Position numbers and translations under genes: made by a program. 55,215 nucleotides of DNA from IMG/VR virus record IMGVR_UViG_3300002098_000007, positions 1 through 55,215 of that record; one strand, written 5' to 3'. This document shows positions 1,967-55,215 of the stretch, piece after piece. Positions within the stretch are counted from its first letter, which is position 1, and each line of letters begins with the position of its first letter. The notes under the pieces are model-generated. The model saw nothing but the letters and a program-made list of their open reading frames with translations. It was not told where the DNA came from and ran no database searches. The stretch is from a virus.

Positions 1967-2268
1967 AACCCGGCTACGTAAAACCGCCGCGCATTAAAGC
2001 GCCAAAAGAGATGCCCGTTGAGCATGCCACACGCATTCAGACGTACCTTGACAACGCTGTTCCTCCGTTGCACAGGCTCGTGACTGAGCGCGCCCTCACC
2101 GGACAGCTCGCTCGTGCCGCAGCGGTGAAGGTAAAATGTTTGTCCTGCTGCAATTTTGAGCGGGATGAGGTGAAGCACTGCGCAGTGGTGATTTGCCCGT
2201 TGCACCTAATCCGCCCGTATCAAGGCAAGCACACTATTGAGGACTCTGACGATGACGCCACCGCGTAA
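1963..2268 (+). CDS. Small Cys-rich (putative zinc-binding) protein
   Basis: 101 aa, with ATGA overlap onto the helicase stop. Cysteine cluster KCLSCCNFERDEVKHCAVVICPLH. Confidence 0.5.
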   Translation: MKPGYVKPPRIKAPKEMPVEHATRIQTYLDNAVPPLHRLVTERALTGQLARAAAVKVKCLSCCNFERDEVKHCAVVICPLHLIRPYQGKHTIEDSDDDATA

Positions 2269-15726: not shown

Positions 15727-16146
15727 ATGAAGTTCAACCCCGGCCAGCCGCACGGCACAATTGTGGGCCACGAGTGGGCCCGCTACGAGCAAAACGGCAT
15801 CCTCTACGACGGCGCGGGGTTGATCCCCGAGGCCGCCGCGGCAATAGACAAAGCCGCCGCGAAACCAGCTAAAAACGCGCCAGCGAGCAAAACAAAAACA
15901 GAAGCCAAGGCCGAGCCCAAGGCCCCCGCTCCGCAGGACGATTTGAAGCTAAAAAACGCCACCGAGTTCTTGACTAATTTGCTCTCCGGCGGGCCAATCG
16001 ACAAATCCGTTGTGTTCAAAGAGTCGGACAGCAACTGCCAAGACTGGGGCACCGTGAAGGCCGCCTTTGCGCAGATGAACGGGGTGAGCTTCAAGCGCGG
16101 GCAGTCTGAAATCTGGCGCCTGAACCCTGAGGAGGTTCAGCAATGA
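15727..16146 (+). CDS. Hypothetical protein
   Basis: 139 aa with a GGAGA RBS and a central Ala/Lys/Pro-rich linker. Confidence 0.55.
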   Translation: MKFNPGQPHGTIVGHEWARYEQNGILYDGAGLIPEAAAAIDKAAAKPAKNAPASKTKTEAKAEPKAPAPQDDLKLKNATEFLTNLLSGGPIDKSVVFKESDSNCQDWGTVKAAFAQMNGVSFKRGQSEIWRLNPEEVQQ

Positions 16147-17717
16147 CATGGGACGCAACTGAGCCGTACATGGCGGAGTCGAAAAAGATCGTCTGGGAGG
16201 TGGCCCCGTACCTACGCGGGCGGGGCTTAGACATTGGCGCGGGGGACTTCAAAGTCCTGCCTCACGTCATCAGCGTGGACAACATGCACCACTCGCAGTT
16301 CGGGTTCAGCGTCAAGCCGGACGTGATGTGCGAGGCGAGCAACTTAGATGTCTTCGGTAGCCAGTCGATGGATTTTGTTTACAGCAGCCATACGCTTGAG
16401 CACATTGCTGACTACGAGAATACGCTTAAAGAATGGTGGCGCGTCATCAAACAAAACGGCTACCTCATACTCTACCTGCCCGATGAGGACGAATACCCCA
16501 AGGTGGGCACCCCACACGCCAATCCTGATCACAAGTGGGACGTCAACTACGACAAAGTAGTTAACGCCATGAGTTGTGTCAAGGGCGGGTGGGATTTGAT
16601 TGACTTTCAGAAACGTAATGCTGACAACGAGTACAGTTTGTATTTTGTGTTTAAAAAGCAGAACTCTGACAAGTTCAAATTCAGTTACAAAAACCCTAAG
16701 CCTGAAAAAACCGCCTGCGTAGTGCGTTACGGCGCGTTCGGAGATATGATGATGGCTTCCTCAGTGTGGGCCGGGCTCAAAAAGCAGGGTTATCACGTCA
16801 CGGTGTTTTGCTCGCGCCCGGGTAGCGATGTTGTCACTAATGATCCCAACATAGACAACCTGGTGCTGTTTGACAAAGACCAAGTGCCTAATGCGAACCT
16901 GGTGGATTTCTGGGGTTATCAGGCCAACAAGTTTGACAAGTTCGTAAATTTGAGCGAGTCGGTTGAGGGTACGTTCCTGGCTATGCCCGGGCGCGCCCCG
17001 CACAAGTGGCCCGCCGCGTTACGCCACAAGCACATGAACGCCAACTACGTTCAGTTCTCACACGAGCTAGCGGGCGTGCCGCACGAGCCGCAGGTGAAGT
17101 TCTACCCCACTACGGAGGAGCTAGACTGGGCCCGTAAAACTCGCGCCAAAATGGGCGACGGGGTCATCATGTGGTCGCTGGCGGGGTCTTCTGTGCACAA
17201 AACCTGGGCCGGACTTGACAACATACTCGCCGCGGTGATGACCAATTTCCCCTCGGTGCATGTGGTATTGGTCGGTGGGCCGGAGTGCGTGATGCTGGAG
17301 GCTGGATGGGAGAACGAACCCCGCGTGCACAAGACCTCGGGCAAGTGGAGCATACGCCAGAGTCTGTCGTTCTTGTACGAGTGCGACCTGGTGATTGGCT
17401 CCGAGACCGGGGTGCTGAACGCGGCGGCCTGTCTCGACGTGCCTAAAATTACGTTGTTGTCACACTCAACACACGAGAACTTGACCCGCGACTGGAAGAA
17501 CGTGATACCGATCGCCTCGGAAAACACCACCTGCCCCGGGCGCGGCAACAACGACGCCCCCGCGTGTCATCAACTGCACTACGGCTGGGTGCACTGCAAA
17601 CAAGACCCCCACCAGGGCGTTGCGCAGTGCCAAGCCGACATCAGCGTCGACACCGTATGGCAGGCCACCTACGGCGTCATCAAAGCTGCGCTCGAGCGCA
17701 ACAGGAAGGTAGCGTAA
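16143..17717 (+). CDS. Fusion protein: class I SAM-dependent methyltransferase (N-terminal) + glycosyltransferase family 9 (heptosyltransferase-like, C-terminal)
   Basis: 524 aa. The N-terminus has GLDIGAGDF (motif I) and FVYSSHTLEHI...NGYLILYLP (Methyltransf_11-like). The C-terminus has VVRYGAFGDMMMAS...HVTVF, VLVGGPEC, SGKWSIRQSLSFLYECDLVIGSETGVLNAAA, the GT9 pattern. Its ATGA overlaps the upstream gene. Confidence 0.8.
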   Translation: MTWDATEPYMAESKKIVWEVAPYLRGRGLDIGAGDFKVLPHVISVDNMHHSQFGFSVKPDVMCEASNLDVFGSQSMDFVYSSHTLEHIADYENTLKEWWRVIKQNGYLILYLPDEDEYPKVGTPHANPDHKWDVNYDKVVNAMSCVKGGWDLIDFQKRNADNEYSLYFVFKKQNSDKFKFSYKNPKPEKTACVVRYGAFGDMMMASSVWAGLKKQGYHVTVFCSRPGSDVVTNDPNIDNLVLFDKDQVPNANLVDFWGYQANKFDKFVNLSESVEGTFLAMPGRAPHKWPAALRHKHMNANYVQFSHELAGVPHEPQVKFYPTTEELDWARKTRAKMGDGVIMWSLAGSSVHKTWAGLDNILAAVMTNFPSVHVVLVGGPECVMLEAGWENEPRVHKTSGKWSIRQSLSFLYECDLVIGSETGVLNAAACLDVPKITLLSHSTHENLTRDWKNVIPIASENTTCPGRGNNDAPACHQLHYGWVHCKQDPHQGVAQCQADISVDTVWQATYGVIKAALERNRKVA

Positions 17718-28300: not shown

Positions 28301-29221
28301 ACCCTCACCAAAAAGGCGCTCGGCATCGCAGAAGACGCGGAGCTGTCAACTGAAACCCTCAACGCCGTACGCGCCAAGGCTGGCGAGGCGTATCAAGCTG
28401 TCAAGGACACCAAAGAACCCATTTACAGCAACACCAAATACAAGCAGTCGATTGACGCGCTGAGCAAAGACTGGCAGGCCGCTGAGCGGGACTTTCCGGA
28501 AATCGCCAAAAACAAGGGTGACATCACTGACTTGCAGAACATGATGCGCAAGGCGCAAATCAGTCCCACGGGGGCGATTGAGATGGTTAAGCAGTTGCGC
28601 AGCGAGGCTAAGACTAATTTGAAGGCATTTGACAAGCCCGACAAACAGGCCCTGGGCCGTGCGCAACGCCAGGCGGCTGAGGCGCTTGATCAACTCGTTG
28701 ATGACAACTTGAGCCAGAACACCCTAGTCACCAAAGCCAACCCCGACCTTGTAAAAAATTACCGTCAGGCACGGGAGCTTATCGCCAAGTCTTATGACGT
28801 TGAAACCGCCTTGAATGAGGCTACCGGCAACATCGACGCTGCTCGGCTGGGTCGGTTGTTGTCTAAGAAGCAGCTCACCGGCTACCTCAAAGACATTGCC
28901 GAGTTTCAGCGCGCATTCCCCAAGGCGGCACAGCTGCCTGAGCGTATAGGGGCCGCGCCGGGTATTAGCCCGTTGGACGTTGCTACTGCCGGAATAGAGG
29001 GCACTTCGGCGCTCGCAGCGGGTAAGCCCGGCCTTGCCGCGGGGGCTGTCGGCACTGTGCTAGGCCGTCCGGTTGCGCGCAGTATAGGGCTGAGCGAGAG
29101 ATACCAACGGGGGCCCGGCTCGGCGCAACAGTTTGACCTTTCAGGACGTAAAATTTTACCTAAAGGCGCGCCCCTCGGCGCTGCTGGAGCACAATCAGCT
29201 GTTGAGAGACAAGAACAATGA
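25325..29221 (+). CDS. Large internal virion / ejection protein candidate
   Basis: 1298 aa, the largest ORF of the block. It has several modules separated by Ala/Gly linkers, including [42 protein letters not shown]. Confidence 0.55.
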
Positions 29222-30552
29222 AATTACTCATCATCGATACCGACGGAGTCGGCTTGAGTTTCGCTTTCCGTGCTAGTATAGCGGGTCATCAAGTGCGTTG
29301 GTTTATAGAACCGAAACCTAGCAATAACAAAGCCACCGGCAACGGTTTTAAGGGTATTGAGAAGATCGATAACTGGGTGCCGTCGGTTAAGTGGGCCGAT
29401 CTCATCATCCAGACCAGCAACGACAAATACGTTGAGAAGCTAGACTTCTTCCGCAAGCAGGGGTATCCGGTGTTCGGCCCTACGCCTGAGAGCGCGAAGT
29501 TGGAGATTAGCCGCGGTGACGGTATGAAGTTGATGGAGAAGGTGGGCATTAAGACCGTCCCCTACGAAACGTTCAAAAACATGAACGAAGCTAAGAAGCA
29601 CGTTGAGAAAACGGGTGAGCGCTTTGTCTTCAAAACCCTGGGTGACAACGAGGACAAATCACTCACGTACGTGGCTAAGAGCCCCGCAGACCTGATTGGC
29701 TGGATGGAGCGTCTGATTGCTCGCGGCGAGCAGCCTAAAGGCGACGTCATGCTGCAGACCTTTGTTAAGGGTATCGAGATGGGCGTCAGCCGCTTTATGG
29801 GTAGCAAAGGCTGGGTTGGGCCCTGGAATGAGAGTTTTGAACACAAAAAGCTCATGCCCGGTAACTACGGCCCCAATACCGGCGAGATGGGCACAATTGC
29901 CTACTTCACCGAGGAAAGCAAGTTGGGCGAGGAAACACTGGGCAAGCTAGAAAAAGAGCTGCTCAAACTCGGCCACACCGGCGACGTTGCTCTCGGGTTC
30001 ATGATAGACGAAAAGGGCCAGCCCTGGCCCACGGAGTGGACGTGTCGCTTCGGTTGGCCCATTGCCAACATGATGCTCGGTGCGACCGAGGGCGACCCGG
30101 TTGAGTGGATGCGCGACGCGCTGAACGGTAAGGACACTACGTCCTTCAAAACTGATATCGGCTGCTGCGTGGTGCTGGCGCACGGGGACTTTCCGCACGG
30201 TAATATGACCAAGCGCGAAGTCTCCGGAGTTCCGCTCTACGGAGTTACTAAGGGTAACAAAAAGCACATCCACCCCCAGGCCATCAAGATTGACGTACTG
30301 CCCGATATGGACGGCGAACAGATGACCCGCCGCCCGTTGTGGAACACCTCGGGCGACTACGTAGCGGTGGTCACCGGGTACGGTCGGGACGTAAAGCAGG
30401 CTAGCTCTCGGGCCTACAAGACCGTTGAACAACTGCACATCAGCAATATAATTGTGCGTGATGATATTGGCGAAGAGTTAGAAGAAACCCTGCCCAAGCT
30501 GCACGCTATGGGTTATGCCCAACACTGTGAATTTGATACCGGGAGTAAGTAA
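29218..30552 (+). CDS. PurD-family (phosphoribosylamine-glycine ligase-like) ATP-grasp ligase, divergent
   Basis: 444 aa, colinear by eye with PurD. Matching blocks: VFGPT..SAKLE.S, FVFKT...(A-domain), [20 protein letters not shown] (vs DHKR..D.GPNTGGMG), [22 protein letters not shown] (vs GLMI...P.VIEFNCRFGDP) and a C-terminal ...VRDDIG. The N-terminal GGREHA motif is replaced by [10 protein letters not shown]. Confidence 0.8.
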
Positions 30553-40560: not shown

Positions 40561-41301
40561 TTATTCCGCAATGGGAATGAGTTTCTTGAAGTTCTCAATC
40601 GTCATCTCAGCCGTATCGGGACATGAGTAACGGTTCTTAGCCGCGTACGCAGCGTTCTCCACGAAGTGCAGCAGCCGCTCGCCGGTGCTAGCGCCGCGGG
40701 TGACTTCCTTGTTGAACCCGGCGTCCGCTTTCTTGATGATGACTTTGAAGGCGCAGAACGCCAACACGTCTGCCCATTCCTGCAGCAACGCATTGCAGCG
40801 GTTAGGCAGCTTAGGTGTATAGCGGTCGTAGGGGTCAGTGCGGGGGTCTTCAAACTTCACTACCGAGGCGTGAGCGATGAGCACTACGTTCATATTGCGG
40901 CGAGTGCGTAGGGCGTCTAGGCCCTGCAAGATCTCACGGAACTCTTCAGCTACGTACATTTGGCCCTTGCCGTAGCTTTGTTGTTTCTCGTCGTACTGTT
41001 CGTCTACGCTAGCAGTTATTAAAGGCTCAATTAACCAATCGACCGAGTCTACAACCACGGTGCGGAAGTCGTGTTCCTCCTTGAGCAGGGTTTTGATCGA
41101 TTCGACCACATCCGTGAGCTTTTGCGCCTTGGGAAAGCTCGTCACGTCTAGCGAATCGATGCCGTCCTCCGTGCTGATGAAGATTGGCGCGGGAAACTGA
41201 CTAGCCAGCGTGGACTTGCCGATTCCGTGCCCTCCGTACAAACAGATTCGCGGGGGAACCTGCTGCGGGCCGACCCGCAAAGTATCTTTCCAATTTGACA
41301 T
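40561..41301 (-). CDS. Sak4-like / AAA_24 RecA-fold ATPase (recombination mediator)
   Basis: 246 aa. Walker A LYGGHGIGKSTLA, Walker B VVVDSV. Confidence 0.7.
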   Translation of the reverse strand: MSNWKDTLRVGPQQVPPRICLYGGHGIGKSTLASQFPAPIFISTEDGIDSLDVTSFPKAQKLTDVVESIKTLLKEEHDFRTVVVDSVDWLIEPLITASVDEQYDEKQQSYGKGQMYVAEEFREILQGLDALRTRRNMNVVLIAHASVVKFEDPRTDPYDRYTPKLPNRCNALLQEWADVLAFCAFKVIIKKADAGFNKEVTRGASTGERLLHFVENAAYAAKNRYSCPDTAEMTIENFKKLIPIAE

Positions 41302-41332
41302 GATTTGTTTTCCTTTCTTGGTTAGAGGCGGT

Positions 41333-41680
41333 TCAGTCTTCCGCCGTTAAAAACTCGTTCAGCTCAGCCGCGTCAAAGTCCCAGCGCTGAGGCACGTATT
41401 TGAAGTCCACTTTGTCCCACTTCAACACGTCCACCAGGCCGTGCTTTTCGGCAATCGCAATCATAGCTATACCGCAGAGCGTAGGGTCGCCGCTGATGAG
41501 CAAATAATCGCCCGGAACCCATTCGCCGAGCACCTTGCGAGCGTGAACAATCATCCGGGGGGTGTTATAGTTCCGCGCCACGTTGCCAAAGACATCCCGC
41601 AACGCGCCGTAACGCTCCGCGTCGGAGTAATTCTTGCGGCTGTCGTTATGCACGATGAACACTATACGTTCGTTATTCAT
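41333..41680 (-). CDS. Hypothetical protein
   Basis: 115 aa, overlapping the polymerase gene end by 8 nt. Confidence 0.55.
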   Translation of the reverse strand: MNNERIVFIVHNDSRKNYSDAERYGALRDVFGNVARNYNTPRMIVHARKVLGEWVPGDYLLISGDPTLCGIAMIAIAEKHGLVDVLKWDKVDFKYVPQRWDFDAAELNEFLTAED

Positions 41681-43511
41681 CTTTCTTTTTCCTCTTAGTT
41701 TTCTTTACTTCTACCCGGGCGAGTAGCTCGGGTGTTAAATACTCGGCGCAGCCGATGTCGCAGGAAATCTTAACCGCCTCGGTAATATACCACTCGTAGT
41801 CCAGGTCGGCGGGGTGCTCGCCCTGCGGGTCAATAGTCATACACGCGCGGGCGCCGTCAGACTTAGGCACCTTGTTGCCGTTAGTCTTGTACCGGATAGG
41901 CTCCAGCGCGGGATCATTGCTCTGATACCACCGCACCACCTTGCCCAGGTAGTTACCCATCTGCTCACCACCGCCGGTCACGTTCCGCGCACTTATAAAG
42001 TCCACAAATGGCGCGTTTTTAATGGTTTCAGCAAACGCCGTACCCCGGGCCAGCCACTGGCCTACAGCAGCCGCACAAACTCCCGCGGTGGCGTTCTTTT
42101 TTAGGCTCAGAGGGGCATAAATACCCTTCTCTTTAAGCGAGCGGTCAGGCTTCACCGCGATGTAGTTATTTACGTCCTTCATCGCCAACGCGCGGTAAGG
42201 CGTGAACTCAAAACGCAGCCCGGTGTGGAGCTCAAAAGCCTTTACGACGTTCTTCACCGTTTCTTCAATCTTACGGGGATAGCCTACTGCAATACCGTCA
42301 GTGTTCGCGCTTAAGGTTACGGCCTCAACCTGCTCAAGTCGCTCAATCAACATGAGCAGCGTGAACTGCCCAGTGAGCGTTACGGCGAGCATGAACTCCG
42401 GCGCGTACAGCACCGAGTATTTGCTAGCGAGCTTGCCGAACGTGCCGTTGAGCGAAATCTTCAACGTCTCATTGGTAGCCTTGTCGCCCGTGCGCTTGGC
42501 CTCGATTCGTTTGTCGTAGATCTTGCGGTATTCGTCCAGGAACTTCGACCCCACGGCCTCTGGGTACATACCGGCGAGCAAAATGAGTGAGGGGTAGAAC
42601 GACTCGGCGTCGATGTCGCATATGACATAATCCTCCCCCGCGACGTGACATACCTTACGGTCATGCGCGCTATGAATACCCCCCACGCCGAGCTGATAAA
42701 CACCGCCGTTAAACCCGACGAGCTCTTCCCCCAGGAAGTCCGGCAGTATGACGTGTCCGCTGAGCGGATTCATACGGAACGTGTGCTCGCTCACCCGTTT
42801 GAGCAGCGCACGCAGGTACTCGTTATTAAAGCACAAGAACCCGGGTGGAGCATAGCGAATGGTCTTAGGCACGGGAACATCTTGTCGCTTCAACTTGAGC
42901 GTGGCAATGTACGCCGCCTCTGCCATCTGCGAGTCCGACTTGCTACGCATGTCCACCCCATAACGGCGACTCATATCCACGCGGAGCAGCAGCTCTGAGT
43001 CTAAACGACGTAGCAGCTCTTCAGTCGTGTCTAGGTCGTTCCAGTTGTACTCGTCAATCTGCTGCTTCTGTTCATCGTTGACCTCGGCGTCATGCGCCAA
43101 CGGCATGTCCTGCAACTTGGGCATGTGCATTCGCGCGCCGTAGGCTTTTAAACCTACAAACGAGGGCGCAACTTCAATCAAGTCGATTGAGTCAAACGGC
43201 ACAGGCGCTAAGTTGAACTGTCGGCGCGCAACCCAGGGTTTTAAACGCCGCACGATGAGCGCATCCGCAATGCGTTTGATTTCTAGCTCAGTCCGCCCTG
43301 CGCAGAACGCATCAACAATCACATCGTCAAAAGAATGATTATTGAATCCGACAAAAGTGGTGTCCGGTTGGAGCATGAACTCACGCAGGCGTGCCGGGGC
43401 GTCAGGCTCATTGCGGCGAAACTGCTTACGGCGGCCTGAGTCGACATCCTTAAACCCGACCACTGTGTAATTGGGCAGGGTCTCAAAATCGAATACAAGG
43501 GTAGGCATCAA
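41673..43511 (-). CDS. Family B DNA polymerase with a 3'-5' exonuclease domain
   Basis: 612 aa. Exo motifs: FDFET, NHSFDD, YNWND. Pol motifs: A DIDAESFYPSLI, B KISLNGTFGKL, C SANTDGIAV. Confidence 0.8.
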   Translation of the reverse strand: MMPTLVFDFETLPNYTVVGFKDVDSGRRKQFRRNEPDAPARLREFMLQPDTTFVGFNNHSFDDVIVDAFCAGRTELEIKRIADALIVRRLKPWVARRQFNLAPVPFDSIDLIEVAPSFVGLKAYGARMHMPKLQDMPLAHDAEVNDEQKQQIDEYNWNDLDTTEELLRRLDSELLLRVDMSRRYGVDMRSKSDSQMAEAAYIATLKLKRQDVPVPKTIRYAPPGFLCFNNEYLRALLKRVSEHTFRMNPLSGHVILPDFLGEELVGFNGGVYQLGVGGIHSAHDRKVCHVAGEDYVICDIDAESFYPSLILLAGMYPEAVGSKFLDEYRKIYDKRIEAKRTGDKATNETLKISLNGTFGKLASKYSVLYAPEFMLAVTLTGQFTLLMLIERLEQVEAVTLSANTDGIAVGYPRKIEETVKNVVKAFELHTGLRFEFTPYRALAMKDVNNYIAVKPDRSLKEKGIYAPLSLKKNATAGVCAAAVGQWLARGTAFAETIKNAPFVDFISARNVTGGGEQMGNYLGKVVRWYQSNDPALEPIRYKTNGNKVPKSDGARACMTIDPQGEHPADLDYEWYITEAVKISCDIGCAEYLTPELLARVEVKKTKRKKKDE

Positions 43512-43762
43512 CGATCCTGATTCACGTAACTTGAAGTGGGTTCTTCGCCGTTGTCAAGAATCTTGTTCTGAACCTCGATATATTTCTCCAAGAAATGCAA
43601 CGCCTTCTGCAGGTCGGTAATACCGTTCTTCTTTTTCCAGCGAGTGACGTACTTGGTGATTTGAGCCTGGAAATAGTCAAGATCATTAGCCAGCACGTAG
43701 TCCCAGTGCTGAATGCTAGATTTATAGTGCGAGCCGCCCACTTGTTTGTCATTTGCTTTCAT
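43508..43762 (-). CDS. DUF3310-family protein
   Basis: VGGSHYKSSIQHWDY...ITKYVTRWKKKNGITDLQKALHFLEKY. ATG 43762 was chosen because the ORF-track start at 43780 is TTG. Confidence 0.6.
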   Translation of the reverse strand: MKANDKQVGGSHYKSSIQHWDYVLANDLDYFQAQITKYVTRWKKKNGITDLQKALHFLEKYIEVQNKILDNGEEPTSSYVNQDR

Positions 43763-44252
43763 TTGCGTACATTTCCCCAATCAGTTTAAACAGTTTGTAT
43801 TCTTTGTGCACGGGCATCATGTCCCATGCGTAGGACATATACCGATGATACACATCGGCCATTTTGTGGTTGCCGAGCTGAATTTCACGAATGCAGAACA
43901 GCGCGCCATGGGCAATGTCGGCTAGTTTCAGAGTGCGATATTCCCAGTCTTCCAGGTCAGGTAACGGGAAACCGCCGTCCTTCAGCAGGGACTCCTCAAC
44001 ACGGCTGACTTGATCACCGATGCCGTAGAGACGTTTTGCGGGAGAGGGAATGTCGCCGGTTTTTTGCTCAGCCAGGTCATGAACCAGCGCGGCGGTTAGT
44101 AATTCAGCGGTGGCGTCTGGAACCATGAGTAGGCATAACAACGCAACACCGTGAGAGTGATGCCCCACGGTGTCCGCGGCTAGTGTGCGTACGGTATGAT
44201 ATCGGCGGACATCCGACCCGTTGAGCATAAATTCCAAGTTTGAAAGGTTCAC
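43749..44252 (-). CDS. HD-domain phosphohydrolase, YfbR-like 5'-deoxynucleotidase
   Basis: 167 aa with a GTG start after GGAGA. Motifs: RYHT...TVGHHSHGVA, VHDLAEQKTGDIPSPAK, KLADI. Confidence 0.75.
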   Translation of the reverse strand: MNLSNLEFMLNGSDVRRYHTVRTLAADTVGHHSHGVALLCLLMVPDATAELLTAALVHDLAEQKTGDIPSPAKRLYGIGDQVSRVEESLLKDGGFPLPDLEDWEYRTLKLADIAHGALFCIREIQLGNHKMADVYHRYMSYAWDMMPVHKEYKLFKLIGEMYANESK

Positions 44253-44291
44253 TTCAGTTCTCCAGTTATACAGTTAAAAAGCTATGCTGCG

Positions 44292-44325
44292 AATTTTAGC
44301 CCTGTTTTTACGCAGGGCTAAAATT
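44292..44325. other. Perfect 13-bp inverted repeat (aattttagccctg / cagggctaaaatt) forming a stem-loop
   Basis: Stem 44292-44304 / 44313-44325 with an 8-nt loop. It lies in the 72-nt gap between the ThyA-like and HD genes, and the right arm abuts the ThyA-like stop codon. Confidence 0.8.
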
Positions 44326-45311
44326 TATTTTTCTGCCAGTGCGAGCTCCCGGCGATGAATCCAATCGTTAGCGGCGCGGCGAATGTCTTCATGAGTGATT
44401 TTGGCAGCCCAAGCGGAACCGTCACCGGCTTTAGTCTTACGGGTGTGGCTGATCATAGCGAGGGGGTAGGCCACGTTGGTGAAGAACGGGTGAGAGTAAC
44501 GGCGGATTTTAATCGGATCATCGCAGAACAACTCACACTCTTCAAGAAACGTGCGGTAGCTACCCGCACCGAGTATAGGCGCCGGGCGCACCAGGCACGC
44601 TGAATACAAGTCGTAGTCCTCGGCCACCGGGGGGTTCTCAATATACTTAGTCGCTGAGTACAACTCAGTATACAAGTGCAGGTTGGTACTGAAGGTGCGG
44701 TACACCCCCAAGTTGACACACACCGCGGAGGCTACAAACTCCTGCACAACGCTGAAGTGAACGATATTAGCCCCGGCGTAACCCCACCACGCATCGTTGC
44801 TACGGTTAATCACCGTCATGTTGAGCTTTTCGTTCTGAATTTCAAAGATGAGCTGCATGTTGCAGGCTTTGTCTTTAGTGTTTTTGGTCAAATCTTCCGG
44901 GGCCCACATCTGCACCACGGCCTGGCGGGTGTCGTGGTTCTTGCGCAGTTGTTGAATGACCTCAATCAACTGATCGTTTCCAAAGTGATGACGCCAGCGG
45001 TAACCATAGGCAGCGTTAAAAATCTTCCCGTTGTCCGAGTACGCCCCAATCTTGCTGTTGAAGCGCTTCAAAAACGCGACGTCGCGCCGCCCGGCGAGCA
45101 TCCAAATCGGCTCCAACATGTGGAAAATGGGGTTAGCGTCTCGCCCATGGTGAAACAAGATACGCTCCTGAGGATACTTTACAGTTGTCATTACAGGCTC
45201 GGGGATGCGCAGGGCAGGGCCATTGCGCGTTTCAACCGGAATGCCAGAGGTCTTCAAACGCCAGAACATATCTTGAAACATTGTATTTGCGTTACGTGTG
45301 GTGATTTCCAT
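44325..45311 (-). CDS. Divergent thymidylate synthase (ThyA)-family enzyme; candidate dUMP hydroxymethylase
   Basis: 328 aa. Motifs: YGYRWR, DQLIEVIQQLRKNHDTRQAVVQMW, KACNMQ (Cys nucleophile retained; PCH->ACN), RSNDAWWGYAGANIVHF, STNLHLY. A ~60-aa C-terminal extension is present. Confidence 0.7.
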   Translation of the reverse strand: MEITTRNANTMFQDMFWRLKTSGIPVETRNGPALRIPEPVMTTVKYPQERILFHHGRDANPIFHMLEPIWMLAGRRDVAFLKRFNSKIGAYSDNGKIFNAAYGYRWRHHFGNDQLIEVIQQLRKNHDTRQAVVQMWAPEDLTKNTKDKACNMQLIFEIQNEKLNMTVINRSNDAWWGYAGANIVHFSVVQEFVASAVCVNLGVYRTFSTNLHLYTELYSATKYIENPPVAEDYDLYSACLVRPAPILGAGSYRTFLEECELFCDDPIKIRRYSHPFFTNVAYPLAMISHTRKTKAGDGSAWAAKITHEDIRRAANDWIHRRELALAEK

Positions 45312-45313
45312 CT

Positions 45314-46171
45314 TCAGAACTCCGTCTCAGGTTTGTAAAGTGTTCTAGGGGCGCCTTCGTTAAAGATCACCTTGCAGTATTTACTATACTCGCAAAGGCA
45401 ATTCTGTACGTCATGTAGTGTCAGGTCGGTTATACTCAACTTGTCAACGATTTCAGCCCTTATTTTGATGAGCGCCGCGTTGAATGAGTCTTGATTCCAC
45501 GTGTGATACGGCTTGAACCCGTAGACGTAATTCAGCCCGCGTTGGCTACCGGGGCCTAAGGGCGCAAAGGTATGCAAGTCCGGCGCCCGGCCCAGTTGCC
45601 GCCGCATATAGGTCAAATCTGCTGCGACCTGCCCCGCGATGAAGGTGCTGACGCCGAAACACTTAGACATTTCATGCACAAAGCCCTCAATTCGACCGGC
45701 GCGCAGCGCCATACGGATGAGCGGGGCGCGCTTAATCACGTCGCTAATTATGTGCTCACACATAGCCTCAGCTTTACCGCGGCCCTTGTTCTTTGTCGGA
45801 AAGACCATATACGCGCCCGAATAGACTTTGCCGTGTGTTTTAGCGTCCTCAACAACTTTTATGAACCCCGCAGCGTTGAAACCCTCCGCGTAGGTTGGCA
45901 ACACCTTGGCATCAATCAGCCGCTGCAGAGTCGGCGGCCAGTTGATTAACCGAGCCAGGAACAGCGTGAACCACAAGTCCGGTGCGTCAGCCTGGGGGGC
46001 GATTAGGTGATCGATGATCCACTTTGAAACCCTATCGTCTTTGCGACGGATATTAGTGAATTTGTACTTCTGTAGAACTAAGTCTTTAGTCCATGGGGCG
46101 GGCGCCCCGGCCTCGCGCTTCAAGCGAATTGACTCGCGCTCAAACACAAACTCTAACAACATGTCATTCAT
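45314..46171 (-). CDS. Candidate aGPT-Pplase-type DNA base hypermodification transferase (285 aa)
   Basis: The N-terminal ERESIRLKREAGAPAPWTKDLVLQKYKFTNIRRKDDRVS motif is recalled for alpha-glutamyl/putrescinyl thymine pyrophosphorylase-like proteins. The gene is sandwiched between the ThyA-like gene and the P-loop kinase. Not verified by search. Confidence 0.45.
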   Translation of the reverse strand: MNDMLLEFVFERESIRLKREAGAPAPWTKDLVLQKYKFTNIRRKDDRVSKWIIDHLIAPQADAPDLWFTLFLARLINWPPTLQRLIDAKVLPTYAEGFNAAGFIKVVEDAKTHGKVYSGAYMVFPTKNKGRGKAEAMCEHIISDVIKRAPLIRMALRAGRIEGFVHEMSKCFGVSTFIAGQVAADLTYMRRQLGRAPDLHTFAPLGPGSQRGLNYVYGFKPYHTWNQDSFNAALIKIRAEIVDKLSITDLTLHDVQNCLCEYSKYCKVIFNEGAPRTLYKPETEF

Positions 46172-46749
46172 TGCTCGAACTCCCAGAAGACCTGCACCAG
46201 CGAAGGATGCGGGTCGGTGTAATTGATCACGCGTACATCAAACCCCCCGGCAGCTTTCAGGTTACGGTAGCAGTTCACCACGCTTTTGAACTTGTCTACT
46301 AGGTTCACAGGGTCAAAAGGTTTAGCGTTACCCGCAGCGGCCCGGCGGCCTTTTACGCGCTCGATGCACAACTCCTCAGGGGTGTTCAAAAACGCGTACA
46401 CATCGCACCCCGTGGGGTGAATAGACTGCGTAACCGCACCCGCGAGCCCCGAGGCTGAGACAAGGGCGCCCTCGAACAAAACATGCCCCCGGGCGTGCGC
46501 CTTGTGTATACGCTCGGCAATCTCGTCCTGAGTCTTGATTGAATCCGTCCCACCGCAGACGTTGTCGTATTTGCCGACTATAAAGATCGGCTGCTGTACG
46601 AGCGCCGCGCTCGCGTCACACTTGTAACCCATGATTTTACCCGCCGAGTTGCGCAGTTCGGTAGTGGGGTATCGAGTCATGAACTCGCGCACCGCGGTGG
46701 TCTTACCCGAACCGAACGTACCGCGAACTGAGAGTATGGCTCGCCTCAT
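46168..46749 (-). CDS. P-loop kinase; candidate 5-hmdU DNA kinase
   Basis: 193 aa. Walker A RGTFGSGKTT. Small size and ATGA coupling on both sides fit the call. Confidence 0.55.
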   Translation of the reverse strand: MRRAILSVRGTFGSGKTTAVREFMTRYPTTELRNSAGKIMGYKCDASAALVQQPIFIVGKYDNVCGGTDSIKTQDEIAERIHKAHARGHVLFEGALVSASGLAGAVTQSIHPTGCDVYAFLNTPEELCIERVKGRRAAAGNAKPFDPVNLVDKFKSVVNCYRNLKAAGGFDVRVINYTDPHPSLVQVFWEFEQ

Positions 46750-46925
46750 TTCTCACCCCCGAACGCCAAGTGCAGCAACAAATACCACATCGCTAAATGT
46801 GCGGCGTCAGATCTGCCCGTTTTATTGAACACTTCCGCGTAGTGTTTGTGCCAACCGTAGTTGTCGCTGCCGAGGGGTAAATTGCTCAGCCGCTTAAGCG
46901 CATGCTGCCGTTGCTTGGGTGTCAT
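46746..46925 (-). CDS. Small hypothetical protein (59 aa)
   Basis: Not in the ORF track. It reads MTPKQRQHALKRLSNLPLGSDNYGWHKHYAEVFNKTGRSDAAHLAMWYLLLHLAFGGEK. Its stop overlaps the kinase ATG (ATGA), and it starts 3 nt after the upstream stop. Confidence 0.45.
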   Translation of the reverse strand: MTPKQRQHALKRLSNLPLGSDNYGWHKHYAEVFNKTGRSDAAHLAMWYLLLHLAFGGEK

Positions 46926-46928
46926 TTG

Positions 46929-47954
46929 TTATTCCTTTACGTTATAGCGCTCGGGCCGGTACTCACCAAGCCTGATGAGCGAACCCGTCGCGGGGAAAAT
47001 TTTAGCCTTTTCCGCAACGCTGCGGTATTTATTTTCGCACTCAGCGCGGAGCCAGTTTGGCAGCCTATCGGAGCGTATGTCTTTGAATACTTCGGTATAT
47101 TCCTGCAGGTTGCGTTCATCTGCCCATAGGATCCGCTCCCAGGCCATATCAGCGTAAACCCCAGGGTAACGACGACCGAAGAAGTGATTCTTAAACGTGC
47201 ACAAGTTGCTCTCAAGTGTGAATAGAGAGGCGCCGGTCAGCTCGGGGTGTTGAGACTTGAACAGATCGAGCCAAATGTCCGCCCCCGCGGCTAAGAAGGC
47301 ACACATCGGTTTGAAGTTATTGTATTCACCGGTCTGCCCGTTAGGTAGCCGCTTGTCCCACACGAGATCATCTTTACCGAGCAGGAACAGCATTCCGTTA
47401 CGGTGCGACTTGCTGCCCGACTTGTCCTCAAACAACAGACTGTCACAGTCCGCGCCGAACCCCTTCAGGTAGACATACTCCAAGTAGCTGAATGAGGACA
47501 ACCGTCCGAATGAGTAGTAATTCCCGCGCACCAGCGTCCAGAGCTGTGAGTACGTTTTACCGCTCAGCATTCCCTCCTGAGAGCCATGACTATCAACCAG
47601 TTCAGCGTATCTCTTTATAGCTATTACGGTTTCTTTTTTCTGATACCTGCGGTCTGTATCGAATTGCAATGTGTCCCATTCGCTGTTGAACCACTCTTCA
47701 AACTTGCTGAGTGTTGAGCCCGCGGGCGGACACTCGGGCAGGCGTTCAAACAGCCTGAGAGAGGTGATAGGGTTCTGCGTCATGCCGTTGAGGAACGCGA
47801 ACCATAACTTCTGCTCAGCGCCCCACCCGTTACGCTGCGCCAGCTCGGGCATGTACAAGTATACCAGGCCGGGCATAATCCGGTGCTCTAGGTTCATAGC
47901 GTACAAATCCGTAAAGAACTGATTTCGGTTTTCCGGCAGTCGGTAGTCAATCAT
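46929..47954 (-). CDS. Candidate second DNA-hypermodification transferase (aGPT-Pplase clade-2 / amino-acid:DNA-transferase-like), 341 aa
   Basis: A large helical protein with no motif I can place in a housekeeping family. Its position inside the kinase/ThyA/PLP cluster supports the call, but the family assignment rests on context and memory only. Confidence 0.35.
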   Translation of the reverse strand: MIDYRLPENRNQFFTDLYAMNLEHRIMPGLVYLYMPELAQRNGWGAEQKLWFAFLNGMTQNPITSLRLFERLPECPPAGSTLSKFEEWFNSEWDTLQFDTDRRYQKKETVIAIKRYAELVDSHGSQEGMLSGKTYSQLWTLVRGNYYSFGRLSSFSYLEYVYLKGFGADCDSLLFEDKSGSKSHRNGMLFLLGKDDLVWDKRLPNGQTGEYNNFKPMCAFLAAGADIWLDLFKSQHPELTGASLFTLESNLCTFKNHFFGRRYPGVYADMAWERILWADERNLQEYTEVFKDIRSDRLPNWLRAECENKYRSVAEKAKIFPATGSLIRLGEYRPERYNVKE

Positions 47955-48084
47955 TCAAACTCTCCATTATTCCAAGCGCGGCAATGTACATAAAAAGCAA
48001 CCCGACTAAAGCCACAACCCCCACCCCAAGCAGTGCGCAAAGGACAAAGACGTTAGCAACGTCTTCAAATATAACAATATTCAT
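47947..48084 (-). CDS. Small membrane protein (45 aa)
   Basis: Not in the ORF track. It reads MNIVIFEDVANVFVLCALLGVGVVALVGLLFMYIAALGIMESLND and overlaps the downstream start by 8 nt. Confidence 0.4.
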   Translation of the reverse strand: MNIVIFEDVANVFVLCALLGVGVVALVGLLFMYIAALGIMESLND

Positions 48085-48086
48085 AC

Positions 48087-48299
48087 TCACCACCTTACGT
48101 CAGATTCAAGTCTGCGATCAACCGCGAACCCGAGCGCTAAGCCGAAAACCACGGTAAAGTAACGCGCCGACCATGCCCAATCTACCGGATTACGCGACCA
48201 TTCCACAAATGCACCTAAGGCGTAAGCAAACGCTAAGGTGCTGGCAAAGGGCATAAACCAGTACAATACGTGCCCCAGGTCGGTTGCGAGTTTTTTCAT
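48087..48299 (-). CDS. Membrane protein (70 aa, two predicted TM segments)
   Basis: ATG 48299 follows GGAGA and overlaps the upstream stop (ATGA). It reads MKKLATDLGHVLYWFMPFASTLAFAYALGAFV...YFTVVFGLALGFAV. Confidence 0.5.
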   Translation of the reverse strand: MKKLATDLGHVLYWFMPFASTLAFAYALGAFVEWSRNPVDWAWSARYFTVVFGLALGFAVDRRLESDVRW

Positions 48300-48484
48300 T
48301 TCGCTTCTCCAGTTATGTTGTGATAGACCTCCACCCAGCGTACGATTTGTTCTAGGCTCTGCCATGGGCCGTAGTTCTTCTGTATAACCTGCGCGGGCAT
48401 GGGCTCAATAATTTTGGCGTCAACAATCACGCCCTCGTGGTCTCGAATCAAAGTTACCGCCTGCGCGGTTGAGGCGTTGCTCAT
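48296..48484 (-). CDS. Hypothetical protein
   Basis: 62 aa, ATGA-coupled to the PLP-enzyme gene. Confidence 0.5.
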   Translation of the reverse strand: MSNASTAQAVTLIRDHEGVIVDAKIIEPMPAQVIQKNYGPWQSLEQIVRWVEVYHNITGEAK

Positions 48485-49440
48485 ACGGGCTCCTTGTGCG
48501 TGTAGAAAGGTTCAATCACTTTAGGGTTAGGGGTCGAGCCTACAATCCAGAACCCGGCTTTGTCATCAAAATTGAGCTCATTATTTTGTCTCAAATAACG
48601 CCAAATTTTTGCCTCGTACGTGGGATGAAAATGAATACCGTCATGGCTCTCCCCTTTGAACTTGTCGCTGTACGCGCTAAACTTCATGTCGTGCAGGCTG
48701 ACATGAGACCAGTGGAAAGGGAGATGATCAATATTAACCCCCATAATCGCCATTCTCTCACGCACCCACTTGCGCTTGTCGGGGCCGATTCCGTAGGTCA
48801 TCAGAAAGTCTACATTTTTAGGGTCTCGGCTCAGGCCGAGCAGGATGCTGCAAAGCGAGTTACACGAGCCCGCGGGCGCTATCAACGTGCGGAGCTCGAG
48901 CGGCAGGTTGCGCACCTGATTGGCACCGACCTCATGAAACTTGAGCACATCCTCCGCGGGGTAGCGGTCATGCGGAACGGTGATGCCGTACTCAACCACT
49001 AGCGAGGCGGGCTTAGTCAGGTCGGCCACGCGGCGTTGAATGATCGGGTTGTACGGCCCATTTACATACTCAAAGTGCGCGCCGAACCCCGCTGCAATAC
49101 GTGGGTTCTCGTGCGTGAGCAGGGTGTGTGGCCTGCTGTAGACCACCTGCCGAGCGATGAGCCCATAGTGTGCTCCTACAATCGCGGACATGCTCAGCTG
49201 CGGGCTCTGCACACTTGCTCCGGTGAGTATGTGAGTCTTCTGCGCTCTGTATCTATTAATGTACCAGATGAGCTGGCGCATCTTGCTGCCGTTGGGGCCG
49301 CCATAGCCTAGCGGCGCAAAGTAATCCTCACGTTTGAACCAGAGCCCCTGGTGATTCTCCCACGGGGTGAACTCGCCCAGGCTCTTCTCCCAATGAACCT
49401 GAGCGCGATCAAGCGTGTGAACAGGAAAAATGCTGCTCAT
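48481..49440 (-). CDS. Fold-type II PLP-dependent enzyme (ACC deaminase / D-cysteine desulfhydrase / Trp-synthase-beta-like)
   Basis: WFKREDYFAPLGYGGPNGSKMRQLIWYI matches the KRED...GGNKxRKL lysine motif region. ATG 49440 follows GGAG. The longer ORF-track start (49596) would overlap the upstream gene by 80 nt. Confidence 0.65.
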   Translation of the reverse strand: MSSIFPVHTLDRAQVHWEKSLGEFTPWENHQGLWFKREDYFAPLGYGGPNGSKMRQLIWYINRYRAQKTHILTGASVQSPQLSMSAIVGAHYGLIARQVVYSRPHTLLTHENPRIAAGFGAHFEYVNGPYNPIIQRRVADLTKPASLVVEYGITVPHDRYPAEDVLKFHEVGANQVRNLPLELRTLIAPAGSCNSLCSILLGLSRDPKNVDFLMTYGIGPDKRKWVRERMAIMGVNIDHLPFHWSHVSLHDMKFSAYSDKFKGESHDGIHFHPTYEAKIWRYLRQNNELNFDDKAGFWIVGSTPNPKVIEPFYTHKEPV

Positions 49441-49516
49441 TTCAAATACTCCAGTATTCCCGTAATAGTGTCTACCACTGAACAAATGGTCATTAGGATG
49501 ATCATTCCTCTGATTT

Positions 49517-49738
49517 TCATGTGTGCTTCTCCCAAAGTTTTTCAAAACACGGTTTGCAACAATCAAATGTGCCATATTCACCACCTGAGCCATCAATAGA
49601 CATAATTGTTGTCACGTTTTCACAAATTTCGCATGTGTATGTACCAATTTCAATACCTACACTTCGACCATAAACAGGTTTTTCAGAATCAAACACTGAT
49701 TTTCTTGTAGCCATCCACGTTTTCCATAATTCAGACAT
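49517..49738 (-). CDS. Zinc-ribbon-like small protein
   Basis: 73 aa with CEIC...CCKPC. Confidence 0.5.
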   Translation of the reverse strand: MSELWKTWMATRKSVFDSEKPVYGRSVGIEIGTYTCEICENVTTIMSIDGSGGEYGTFDCCKPCFEKLWEKHT

Positions 49739-52147: not shown

Positions 52148-52389
52148 GCTTCACCTCTTGCTCGGATTGCTTTAGCTGCGGCAGTTCCATAAATCCTCAC
52201 GCCTGTTGGAATATGCGTATCGCAAACCGTCTTTTGAGCAAGAATTGCACACGCCTCACGCTCGGCCTCTGCTACCAGTTTGGCAAAGCGGCTCAAATCA
52301 TGTTTGTCACATTGAAAAAATAAACCATTTGTTGAGTTGTTGATTCCAGCTTGTCTAGCCATTTCAATGATTTCTGTTTGTGTTGTCAT
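52144..52389 (-). CDS. Accessory protein, MARQAG...EREACA...IRARGxA family, copy 1
   Basis: 81 aa. It reads EIIEMARQAG...FAKLVAEAEREACA...AIRARGEA. Confidence 0.6.
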   Translation of the reverse strand: MTTQTEIIEMARQAGINNSTNGLFFQCDKHDLSRFAKLVAEAEREACAILAQKTVCDTHIPTGVRIYGTAAAKAIRARGEA

Positions 52390-53015
52390 GGCTGAACTCC
52401 AAAGTTATATCCAATCAACTGACAGAACAAACGGTATTGCTCTAAATGCTCTTTGTTTTCTTTATGAGATTTTTCGATTTGTTTTGAAAACTCTGCAACC
52501 GTTCCAGTAAAGCAACCACAAACAACTCGAACACCGATTTTTTCATCCATAAAAGCCGTGGTGAATCTGCCTGACGATTTGGCAGGGCCGATCAGTAGCC
52601 AATGAGTTCTATCAGACACTTGAGCATTGCCAGACACCTGAGCATTGCCAGACACCTGAGCATTGCCAGACACCCGAGCATCGCCATACACCCGAGCATC
52701 GCCAGACACCCGAGCATCGCCAGACACCCGAGCATTGCCAGACACCCAAGCATTGCCAGACACCCAAGCATCGCCATACACCCAAGCATTGCCAGACACC
52801 CAAGCATTGTCATACACCCGAGCATTGCCAGACACCCAAGCATTGCCAGACACCCAAGCATCGCCAGACACTTGAGAAAGATTTTTCTCTGATTCAATAT
52901 ATCCACCCAAATCATTAGGCGTTACCAATGAACCAATTGCAACAAGTGCGCGAATTCGGTACAAAGTTTTTCCAAAAACCTGCTTTGTGTCTGTTTTTAC
53001 AAGTTCATATTTCAT
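52386..53015 (-). CDS. Hexapeptide-repeat (left-handed beta-helix-like) protein
   Basis: ATG 53015 follows AGAGGA (MKYELVKTD...). It carries about 15 consecutive 6-aa units, (G/Y)(N/D)A(W/R/Q)VS. The ORF-track start at 53069 lies in a duplicated gene-start remnant. Confidence 0.65.
   Translation of the reverse strand: MKYELVKTDTKQVFGKTLYRIRALVAIGSLVTPNDLGGYIESEKNLSQVSGDAWVSGNAWVSGNARVYDNAWVSGNAWVYGDAWVSGNAWVSGNARVSGDARVSGDARVYGDARVSGNAQVSGNAQVSGNAQVSDRTHWLLIGPAKSSGRFTTAFMDEKIGVRVVCGCFTGTVAEFSKQIEKSHKENKEHLEQYRLFCQLIGYNFGVQP
52613..52876. repeat. 18-bp tandem repeat array, 14 full units plus one partial (cagacacc[c/t][g/a]agcat[t/c]gc)
   Basis: Units start every 18 bp from 52613 to 52865 (counted individually). 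They encode the hexapeptide repeats on the minus strand. Confidence 0.9.
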
Positions 53016-53054
53016 AACAATGCGTCCTCTGTTTGTGCGCGTTGTTGTTGCGCG

Positions 53055-53079
53055 TATCCATGATTTCATCTTGTGTCAT
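53055..53079. repeat. 25-bp direct repeat, copy 1 (tatccatgatttcatcttgtgtcat)
   Basis: Identical to 53279-53303. It carries a second, orphan copy of the MTQDEIMD gene start. Confidence 0.9.
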
Positions 53080-55080: not shown

Positions 55081-55215
55081 TCAAGCCTCCACAAAAGCCA
55101 CTGCACCCGCACCCAGGGGCAACTCTCGCAGCACGCTGCCATACTGGCTAATTTGCAGGCCCAACGCACGGGCTTCGGCCAGTAGCTCTTGAGTGCTTTT
55201 ACGAGTGCGAGCAGC
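55081..55215 (-). CDS. 3' part of the gene split across the contig ends (same gene as 1..178)
   Basis: In frame to TGA at 55083-55081. Bases 55137-55215 duplicate 1-79. Confidence 0.5.
   Translation of the reverse strand, partial: AARTRKSTQELLAEARALGLQISQYGSVLRELPLGAGAVAFVEA
55137..55215. repeat. Terminal direct repeat, copy 2 (identical to 1-79)
   Basis: Exact 79-nt match to the window start, checked base by base. Confidence 0.95.

Follow-up and report, generated by a model that had tools for sequence, protein, structure and literature searches.

The gene at positions 44325-45311 on the minus strand of IMG/VR virus record IMGVR_UViG_3300002098_000007 very probably encodes a deoxyuridylate (dUMP) hydroxymethylase of the ThyA superfamily, yielding 5-hydroxymethyl-dUMP (5-hmdUMP). 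We base this assignment on homology and on gene context within the record, the whole of which was analysed (55,215 nucleotides, hereafter the window). An earlier note on this DNA had favoured the same activity over that of a thymidylate synthase, a preference that is upheld by an aspartate three residues before the catalytic cysteine (position Cys-3), by scores that miss the cut-offs of the NCBIfam thymidylate synthase models, by placement in a clade with 100% bootstrap support and by neighbouring genes whose products consume 5-hydroxymethyldeoxyuridine (5-hmdU).

The gene is a single ATG-to-TAA open reading frame (ORF) of 328 amino acids, which starts 2 nt past the stop codon of the preceding gene and has the sequence GGAG 9 bases upstream of its ATG; the plus-strand translation of the same interval is riddled with stops. 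The boundaries of the ThyA homologue had been given exactly in the earlier note, which left the strand unstated. Homology to the ThyA superfamily is far in excess of chance, since Pfam Thymidylat_synt (PF00303) matches with E=2.4e-21 (76.5 bits; cut-off, 24.3), spanning only residues 67-220, and PHROG 5131 matches over the full length (E=3.4e-99). All of the motifs quoted previously are found in the translation, namely YGYRWR (residues 102-107), DQLIEVIQQLRKNHDTRQAVVQMWA (113-137), KACNMQLIF (148-156) and INRSNDAWWGYAGANIVHF (168-186).

Active site and relatives of the predicted hydroxymethylase

The protein was aligned using MAFFT with E. coli ThyA, T4-like td, T4 gp42 and phage homologues, and the corresponding codons were verified. 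Residues kept with respect to E. coli ThyA (E. coli numbering in brackets) are R29 (R21), E67 (E58), W70 (W61), Y102 (Y94), R129 (R126), C150 (C146), R170/S171 (R166/S167), D173 (D169), N182 (N177) and H212/Y214 (H207/Y209); the catalytic set of C150, E67, Y102, R170-S171, D173 and H212-x-Y214 is complete and is invariant across the family. Four sites are altered relative to the synthases: W80/W83 are replaced by I88/Y91, R127 by Q130, H147 by N151 and L143 by D147. The retention of the Cys nucleophile and loss of the adjacent His that had been seen by eye are borne out by this alignment and by the codons. Because of indels before the cysteine, MAFFT misplaced the column containing E. coli L143, and this comparison was replaced by direct reading of the residue at Cys-3. 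A K-D-x-x-C-N motif is common to the target and to the enzymes of SP8, PhiW-14, Cba120, ZC01, Bhz59, RHph_I65 and SH-Ab 15599, whereas E. coli ThyA and T4-like td have L-x-P-C-H at the matching site. In the ternary complex of T4 deoxycytidylate (dCMP) hydroxymethylase, D145 activates the water that is added to the exocyclic methylene and the D145N variant is inactive, and Asp at Cys-3 has been proposed as the signature dividing hydroxymethylases from synthases, which have Leu at this position (PMC6400193). Asp147 is the most diagnostic residue of the protein; it was overlooked in the earlier note, as was the loss of the equivalents of Trp80 and Trp83, which in synthases shield the active site, while the C-terminal tail (E. 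coli residues 258-264) closes over the cofactor (PMC6400193).

With regard to the substrate, the determinants established in a study of the cytidylate (CMP) hydroxymethylase MilA are Asn for uracil as opposed to Asp for cytosine, and Arg and Ser for 2'-deoxyribose as opposed to Lys and Ala for ribose (PMC5175136). In the target these positions are occupied by N182, R129 and S171, which is the set expected for dUMP. The uracil-specifying Asn had been claimed to be kept, and N182 does correspond to E. coli N177, the residue being Asp in the dCMP and CMP enzymes. The match to all three published determinants agrees with dUMP as the probable substrate, as had been proposed.

The family is very large. 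A first search gave 917 matches among the candidates, and an exhaustive search gave 1577 clusters at 50% identity (E<=1e-30). None of the residues D147, C150, N151, R129, S171 and N182 varies among 120 close homologues; in a diverse sample composed of the target and the best 150 of the 1577 cluster representatives (151 sequences), R129, S171 and N151 are present in every sequence, and D147, C150 and N182 in 150 each. We also considered whether the protein is a degenerate or inactive homologue, which was ruled out by the invariance of every catalytic residue across hundreds of relatives. At E<=1e-30, 403 phage records were retrieved, mainly from the ViI-like, M6-like and SPO1-like groups. A megablast search with positions 41000-49000 found no near-identical DNA in cultured phages, and the identical protein is also encoded on shorter metagenome contigs. 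Five homologues (P0121, P0166, P0210, P0218 and P0250) are 558-682 amino acids long and carry an insertion of ~235-330 amino acids exactly at the catalytic Cys, with the junctions ...TKDKA|CLAGHT...VVHN|CNTQLMF in P0121; the equivalent site in the window is at 44862-44864. These insertions have the pattern expected of an intein with the catalytic Cys as its +1 residue.

A neighbour-joining tree was calculated from 173 core columns with 200 bootstraps, using a small sampling of 14 sequences. It places the target in a clade with 100% bootstrap support together with the enzymes of SP8 (an SPO1-group 5-hmdU phage), PhiW-14, SH-Ab 15599, Cba120, ZC01, Bhz59 and RHph_I65, and within this clade as sister to the Mesyanzhinovviridae and Rhizobium phage enzymes (80%). 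MilA and T4 gp42 lie outside the dUMP hydroxymethylase clade, and the hydroxymethylases including these two group apart from the synthases with 92% support.

The closest cultured relatives belong to the Mesyanzhinovviridae (Pseudomonas phages M6, YuA, Ab18 and ZC01, Bordetella phage CN1 and Stenotrophomonas phage Bhz59) and to Rhizobium phage RHph_I65. Their enzymes are 36-40% identical to the target over 96-99% of its length, with the C-terminal domain included (39% over 98% of the protein for M6, and also 39% for the YuA and Ab18 homologues), and have both the K-D-x-x-C-N motif and the uracil Asn. The SP8 enzyme is 35% identical over residues 7-265 and shares the Asp at Cys-3, the C-N and R-Q pairs, the specificity Asn and the Ala two residues before the catalytic Tyr (Tyr-2); it differs in its length of 383 amino acids, its C-terminal region being longer and hard to align (157 residues after the HxY motif). 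In the SPO1-type phages, 5-hmdU is itself the final base and the kinase/transferase cluster is absent. The SPO1 gp29/SP8 deoxyuridylate hydroxymethylase is the classical characterised enzyme, according to the passages of PMC6400193 and PMC5175136 that cite Wilhelm & Ruger (1992). PhiW-14 gp230 and its counterpart in Acinetobacter phage SH-Ab 15599 belong to the same clade, have the motif KD-x-P-C-N and feed a 5-hmdU DNA kinase (5-HMUDK) and transferase; they differ from the target in aligning over the core only, at 29-32% identity, and in forming a separate sub-clade with ViI-like enzymes. With the SH-Ab 15599 dUMP hydroxymethylase, dapT/putT formation has been reconstituted in E. coli (PMC13458397).

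More distant members of the superfamily share the core and depart at the diagnostic positions. MilA of Streptomyces rimofaciens (PDB 5jnh and 5b6d), which is the best match among solved structures by both sequence and fold and also has an extra C-terminal domain, has an Asp at Cys-3 (D152, in D-V-A-C) and carries out hydroxymethylation, but has Asp186, Lys133 and Ala176 for cytosine and ribose where the target has Asn182, Arg129 and Ser171. T4 gp42 resembles the target in its core, in D145 at Cys-3 and in the absence of the synthase tail; it differs in Asp179, in Ser94 at Tyr-2 (S94-x-Y96), in keeping Trp82 and in having 28 residues after HxY and no helical domain (18% identity). E. coli ThyA and T4-type td share the fold and the residues Cys, Glu58, Tyr94, Arg166/Ser167, Asp169, Asn177 and His207/Tyr209, whereas E. 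coli ThyA (20% identity) has L143 for D147, H147 for N151, W80/W83 for I88/Y91, and the tail. Two further phage proteins annotated as thymidylate synthases, Xanthomonas phage Mallos gp60 (L008:5797-6657) and the thyA product of Achromobacter phage 83-24 (L009:2803-3663), have Asp at the specificity position and Asn at Cys-3, and their catalytic Cys is followed by Pro. The genes of both adjoin a cytidine/dCMP-type deaminase gene (labelled tadA in 83-24), that of Mallos also adjoining a dihydrofolate reductase (DHFR) gene, and the two proteins may be dCMP-directed methylases, not thymidylate synthases.

The C-terminal region of the target has no alignment with the synthase tail. It comprises 114 residues after the HxY tyrosine, 59 more than the 55 of E. 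coli ThyA, in keeping with the ~60-residue extension described previously. An AlphaFold2 model built from 120 sequences (mean predicted local distance difference test score, pLDDT, 95.6; predicted template modelling score, pTM, 0.93) has helices at residues 252-264, 275-292, 299-303 and 308-327 of this region. In a Foldseek search of PDB, MilA (5jnh) ranks first and aligns over 331 columns, which is the whole model (TM 0.79/0.82), whereas thymidylate synthases align over the core only (TMq 0.50-0.59); the thymidylate synthase fold is established by matches of probability 1.00 to dozens of synthase structures as well as to MilA. Since the match to MilA is full-length, the modelled extension is recognised as a MilA-type helical domain. 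A sequence search of PDB likewise gave MilA with E=8e-18 (profile 8e-29) and the best synthase with E=1e-11 (profile 9e-17), and the likeness of the C-terminal domain to MilA is at the level of fold only, as the sequence profile ends at residue 216. The 114 residues are conserved in the family, for example at P283, D309 and W317, and the region is therefore functional and not a random extension. However, the five-helix C-terminal domain of MilA is located away from the active site (PMC5175136), so what is informative, and mechanistically relevant, is not the gain of the extension but the loss of the synthase tail, by which the cofactor is sealed in for the transfer of hydride. Loss of the canonical C-terminus had been taken in the earlier note as favouring a hydroxymethylase, and T4 gp42 is likewise without this tail (PMC6400193). 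A library of predicted viral structures returned only generic 'thymidylate synthase' labels.

Genes surrounding the predicted hydroxymethylase ORF

The ORF lies in a same-strand series of genes in the order gp226-like pyridoxal phosphate (PLP) enzyme, gp247-like transferase, 5-HMUDK, PF18723 protein, hydroxymethylase, HD-domain protein, DUF3310 protein and DNA polymerase (Table 1). From the kinase to the polymerase these genes overlap or abut, save for a gap of 72 nt after the hydroxymethylase, and the four genes for the kinase, the PF18723 protein, the PF18724 transferase and the PLP enzyme are all within 4.3 kb. The DNA-kinase/transferase set to which the earlier note had appealed is thus real, being recognised by Pfam as PF18748, PF18723 and PF18724. 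Co-localisation of a dUMP hydroxymethylase with 5-HMUDK, for which it supplies the substrate, has been described before (PMC5889632, PMC8989533).

Table 1. Coordinates of the predicted hydroxymethylase gene, its diagnostic codons and neighbouring features in the window
Feature	Position	Strand	Evidence or remark
Predicted dUMP hydroxymethylase (ThyA superfamily), predicted source of 5-hmdUMP	44325..45311	-	PF00303, PHROG 5131, clade, 39% identity to M6/YuA/Ab18
Codons D147-K-A-C150	44862..44873	-	Asp at Cys-3, hydroxymethylase signature; codons verified
Codon N151, replacing the synthase His	44859-44861	-	Codon check
Codon Asn182, uracil-specifying residue	44766..44768	-	Alignment and codon check
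C-terminal region, residues 215-328, modelled as helical MilA-type domain	44328..44669	-	AlphaFold2 model, Foldseek
PF18723 ('5-hmdU DNA kinase, helical domain') protein, 285 aa	45314..46171	-	Pfam E=3.2e-43
P-loop 5-hmdU DNA kinase (5-HMUDK), 193 aa	46168..46749	-	PF18748 E=6.8e-08, above cut-off
Amino acid:DNA transferase (PF18724), 341 aa, ViI gp247 homologue	46929..47954	-	Pfam E=1.1e-14
PLP-dependent enzyme, 371 aa, ViI gp226 decarboxylase homologue	48481..49596	-	BLASTP 33% identity, E=2e-55
HD-domain phosphohydrolase, YfbR/DatZ-like, 167 aa	43749..44252	-	Pfam YfbR-like E=6.9e-10
DUF3310 protein, 90 aa, little beyond the domain	43508..43780	-	PF11753 E=3e-06; PHROGs 'nucleotide kinase'
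Phage DNA polymerase, 612 aa	41673..43511	-	PHROG 1252 E=6e-162; position conserved in relatives
Perfect stem-loop, 13-15 bp	44291..44326	-	Starts at the stop codon of the hydroxymethylase gene, within the 72 nt that separate it from the HD gene

The PF18723 protein occupies the position of M6 gp55, its gene stopping 2 nt before the hydroxymethylase start, and homologues are found in the same place in ZC01, Bhz59 and RHph_I65. The 5-HMUDK gene overlaps the next gene by 4 nt and its product is 35% identical to the ZC01 kinase. Upstream of these, the transferase is 26% identical to ViI gp247 by BLASTP (E=3e-24), and the PLP enzyme, which gives weak matches to fold-type-II PLP proteins, has a lysine, K105, in alignment with gp226 K92, the predicted PLP lysine; in ViI, gp247 is a serine:DNA transferase and gp226 a PLP decarboxylase (PMC8989533). 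No PDB sequence matches were obtained for the kinase, the PF18723 protein or the transferase, in a copy of the database that apparently lacks the recently reported YuA structures.

Downstream of the hydroxymethylase, the HD protein has as its best PDB match DatZ (6zpa, E=1.5e-4), followed by a hypothetical protein and then YfbR, and it also matches PHROG 7076, 'dATP triphosphohydrolase'. In phages whose DNA contains 2-aminoadenine, DatZ acts as a dATP triphosphohydrolase and eliminates the canonical nucleotide. The HD gene is syntenic with the hydroxymethylase in all relatives examined (M6-like, Rhizobium and metagenomic), and its product is a candidate thymidine triphosphate (dTTP)/thymidylate (dTMP) hydrolase that would deplete thymidine nucleotides. 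In SH-Ab 15599, by contrast, the accompanying dTTPase/dUTPase has a dUTPase-like fold and is not an HD protein. The DUF3310 gene overlaps both the HD and polymerase genes and is also syntenic in relatives; the same domain has been linked to nucleotide kinase activity in T7 gp1.7 (PMC10700055), and the protein is a candidate 5-hmdUMP kinase. The phage polymerase is expected to incorporate 5-hmdU triphosphate (5-hmdUTP). The stem-loop in the 72-nt gap has a predicted RNA folding energy of -19 kcal/mol (z=-3.4), with no U-run directly after it on the coding strand. At their starts, the hydroxymethylase and HD genes have the upstream sequence GGAGnnCTGAAG(A/G)TG in common.

The block of kinase, PF18723 protein, hydroxymethylase, HD protein and DUF3310 protein is collinear with ZC01, Bhz59 and RHph_I65, and the order continues into the polymerase in the Mesyanzhinovviridae named above and RHph_I65, although the polymerase of the target is of a different family from the ZC01/Bhz59/RHph_I65 type (no match). 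Together with the PF18724 transferase gene, the block recurs in metagenomic relatives. The tailoring genes also differ, since M6 has a PLP decarboxylase and a radical-SAM (S-adenosylmethionine) isomerase and PaMx11 has flavin adenine dinucleotide (FAD) and acetyltransferase enzymes, whereas the target has the gp247-like and gp226-like genes. As an observation on its own, the cluster is a hybrid in which an M6-type core block is combined with ViI-type tailoring genes, no radical-SAM, FAD or acetyltransferase gene having been seen in it. A dCTP deaminase (DCD) gene lies upstream of the same modification block at L011:3030-3575 in a related 64-kb contig that carries homologue P0093, where its product would contribute to the synthesis of dUMP; neither an equivalent nor a dCMP deaminase is present in the window, which in the latter respect differs from ZC01, Bhz59 and RHph_I65, all of which have one.

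An exact direct repeat of 79 bp at positions 1-79 and 55137-55215 indicates that the window is a complete phage genome of ~55 kb, circular, circularly permuted or terminally redundant. Six-frame phmmer and hmmsearch searches of this complete genome found no second Thy homologue, and Pfam scans of its larger ORFs found no ThyX, DHFR, dCMP deaminase, dUTPase or TET/JBP. With no second Thy homologue and no TET/JBP, the hydroxymethylase is the only visible source of 5-hmdU. Elsewhere in the genome, a gene on the plus strand at 29218-30552 encodes a PurD-like ATP-grasp protein (GARS_A, E=6e-14; GARS_C, E=1.5e-08) and lies between the genes for two proteins of ~1290 amino acids, the downstream one ending in Peptidase_S74 (endosialidase chaperone), which is typical of tail fibres and spikes; such a neighbourhood is an unusual site for a glycine-ligase-like enzyme. 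Downstream of the portal gene, positions 16143-17717 (+) encode a 524-residue fusion of a SAM methyltransferase with a family-9, heptosyltransferase-like glycosyltransferase. The first two large plus-strand ORFs encode an SNF2/DEAD-type helicase (407-1966) and a primase-polymerase with PriCT-2 and AAA domains (2237-4387), not terminase or portal proteins, and positions 52386-53069 (-), in the early region, encode a YdcK beta-solenoid repeat protein.

Alternative readings and points against the assignment

Several points weigh against a dUMP hydroxymethylase. The whole case is one of homology and context, and the nearest homologues are only 39% (M6), 35% (SP8), 32% (PhiW-14) and 29% (15599) identical to the target. 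For the enzymes of SP8 (SPO1 group), PhiW-14 and 15599, hydroxymethylation is backed by cited biochemical or heterologous evidence, while the role of the M6 enzyme has been inferred from the chemistry of its DNA. Searches of PDB by sequence and by fold found no solved structure of a dUMP hydroxymethylase with which the active site could be compared, MilA being the nearest. The second half of the published dCMP hydroxymethylase signature, Ser at Tyr-2, is Ala100 in the target (A100-A-Y102). This position is Ala or Gly in all of the dUMP hydroxymethylase homologues, including SP8 and PhiW-14, so that Ser at Tyr-2 appears from the alignment to be specific to the dCMP enzymes, and the S94A variant of T4 dCMP hydroxymethylase keeps ~25% activity (PMC6400193). 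Finally, M6-like and ViI-like virions still hold ordinary thymidine, the origin of which is unsettled (PMC5889632), and for this reason some output of dTMP by enzymes of the clade may formally be possible.

This last point leads to the alternative of a dual-output enzyme that releases 5-hmdUMP together with some dTMP and would explain the mixture of thymine and hypermodified thymine in related phages. In related phages only a fraction of the thymidines is modified, the literature describes the source of the unmodified T as unknown (PMC5889632, PMC8989533), and the exocyclic methylene intermediate is shared by both reactions. However, the elements needed for hydride transfer, namely the C-terminal tail, Trp80/83 and a hydrophobic residue at Cys-3, are gone, the literature already discusses host dTTP or conversion of 5-hmdU at the polymer level, and no sequence feature specifically supports two products. 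We regard dual output as very improbable.

A bona fide thymidylate synthase, converting dUMP to dTMP with methylene-tetrahydrofolate (methylene-THF) as the donor of both carbon and hydride, would account for membership of Pfam Thymidylat_synt, for the retained catalytic Cys, Glu, Tyr, Arg/Ser, Asp and His/Tyr and the uracil-type Asn, and for the 'thymidylate synthase' label on most database records of relatives. Against this, Cys-3 is Asp and not the hydrophobic Leu (PMC6400193), the equivalents of Trp80, Trp83 and His147 are lost together with the tail that seals the cofactor, and the target falls outside the synthase sequences in the tree. Moreover, the NCBIfam thymidylate synthase equivalogs were all missed, each cut-off by two-fold or more (TIGR03283, 78.7 against 174.55; NF002497, 63.2 against 327; TIGR03284, 48.6 against 108.35). 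A synthase would also require dihydrofolate to be recycled, and the DHFR that would do so was absent from the Pfam scans of larger ORFs described above, whereas phage Mallos and the T4-like phage OE5505 have a DHFR gene near their Thy gene; absence of DHFR fits a THF-releasing hydroxymethylase better than a dihydrofolate-releasing synthase. The neighbouring enzymes, too, require 5-hmdU and not T, and a genuine synthase is very unlikely here.

A cytosine-nucleotide hydroxymethylase that would use dCMP or CMP, in the manner of T4 gp42 or MilA, to make a 5-hydroxymethylcytosine (5-hmC) nucleotide is the least credible alternative, as the Cys-3 Asp shared with cytosine enzymes and the best solved-structure match to MilA, C-terminal domain included, are outweighed by Asn182 (Asp in T4 gp42, D179, and MilA, D186; Asn in all but one of the 151 representatives), by R129 and S171 of the deoxy-specific type in place of MilA Lys133 and Ala176, and by neighbours that are 5-hmdU-specific, with no MilA-like or 5-hmC-specific tailoring gene recognised among them. 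Specificity for dCMP or CMP was accordingly rejected on the basis of Asn182, Arg129 and Ser171.

Proposed pathway and its meaning for the phage

A mechanism for the predicted dUMP hydroxymethylase can be proposed from its conserved residues and from what is established for catalysis by the ThyA superfamily and T4 dCMP hydroxymethylase. Cys150 would attack C6 of dUMP, with Asn182 picking the uracil base and Arg129 and Ser171 suiting a 2'-deoxyribonucleotide. Addition of C5 to the iminium form of 5,10-methylene-THF, the formation of which Glu67 would assist, would be followed by abstraction of the C5 proton, in which Tyr102 and a water would take part, and by elimination of THF, giving the exocyclic 5-methylene intermediate. 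In place of hydride transfer from the cofactor, water activated by Asp147 would add to the methylene, releasing 5-hmdUMP and THF. Further phosphorylation of 5-hmdUMP, possibly aided by the adjacent DUF3310 protein, would allow the phage polymerase to put 5-hmdU into DNA, while the adjacent HD hydrolase may deplete thymidine nucleotides. Within the DNA, the 5-hmdU DNA kinase would phosphorylate the hydroxymethyl group, and the gp247-like transferase and gp226-like PLP decarboxylase would then generate a ViI-type hypermodified thymine. By analogy with ViI, the tailoring genes suggest 5-(2-aminoethoxy)methyl-dU, formed by attachment of serine and its decarboxylation, as a plausible product.

Although the enzyme itself is ordinary, the module around it may be less so. 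A more tentative idea, less likely than not, is that the HD protein (clearing dTTP/dTMP), the DUF3310 protein (as 5-hmdUMP kinase) and the hydroxymethylase form a three-gene cassette for replacing T with 5-hmdU in M6-like, Rhizobium and uncultured phages, whose end product could be an undescribed thymine hypermodification.

Previous publications have covered this class of enzyme, the reaction it performs and its occurrence with 5-HMUDK clusters, as well as the type of hypermodification pathway that it would feed, and the enzyme is a further example that extends known biology. Three positions part the two activities, with Asp at Cys-3, Asn at Cys+1 and no synthase tail on the one hand, and Leu, His and the tail on the other. 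This rule could be used to relabel a very large family, most members of which are labelled 'thymidylate synthase' in public records. The assignment is of practical use for annotation and for flagging a phage whose DNA would be modified. For the uncultured phage with its 55-kb genome, the assignment implies that the DNA contains a hypermodified thymine derived from 5-hmdU, a type of base that affects sequencing and amplification, sensitivity to restriction and evasion of host defence.

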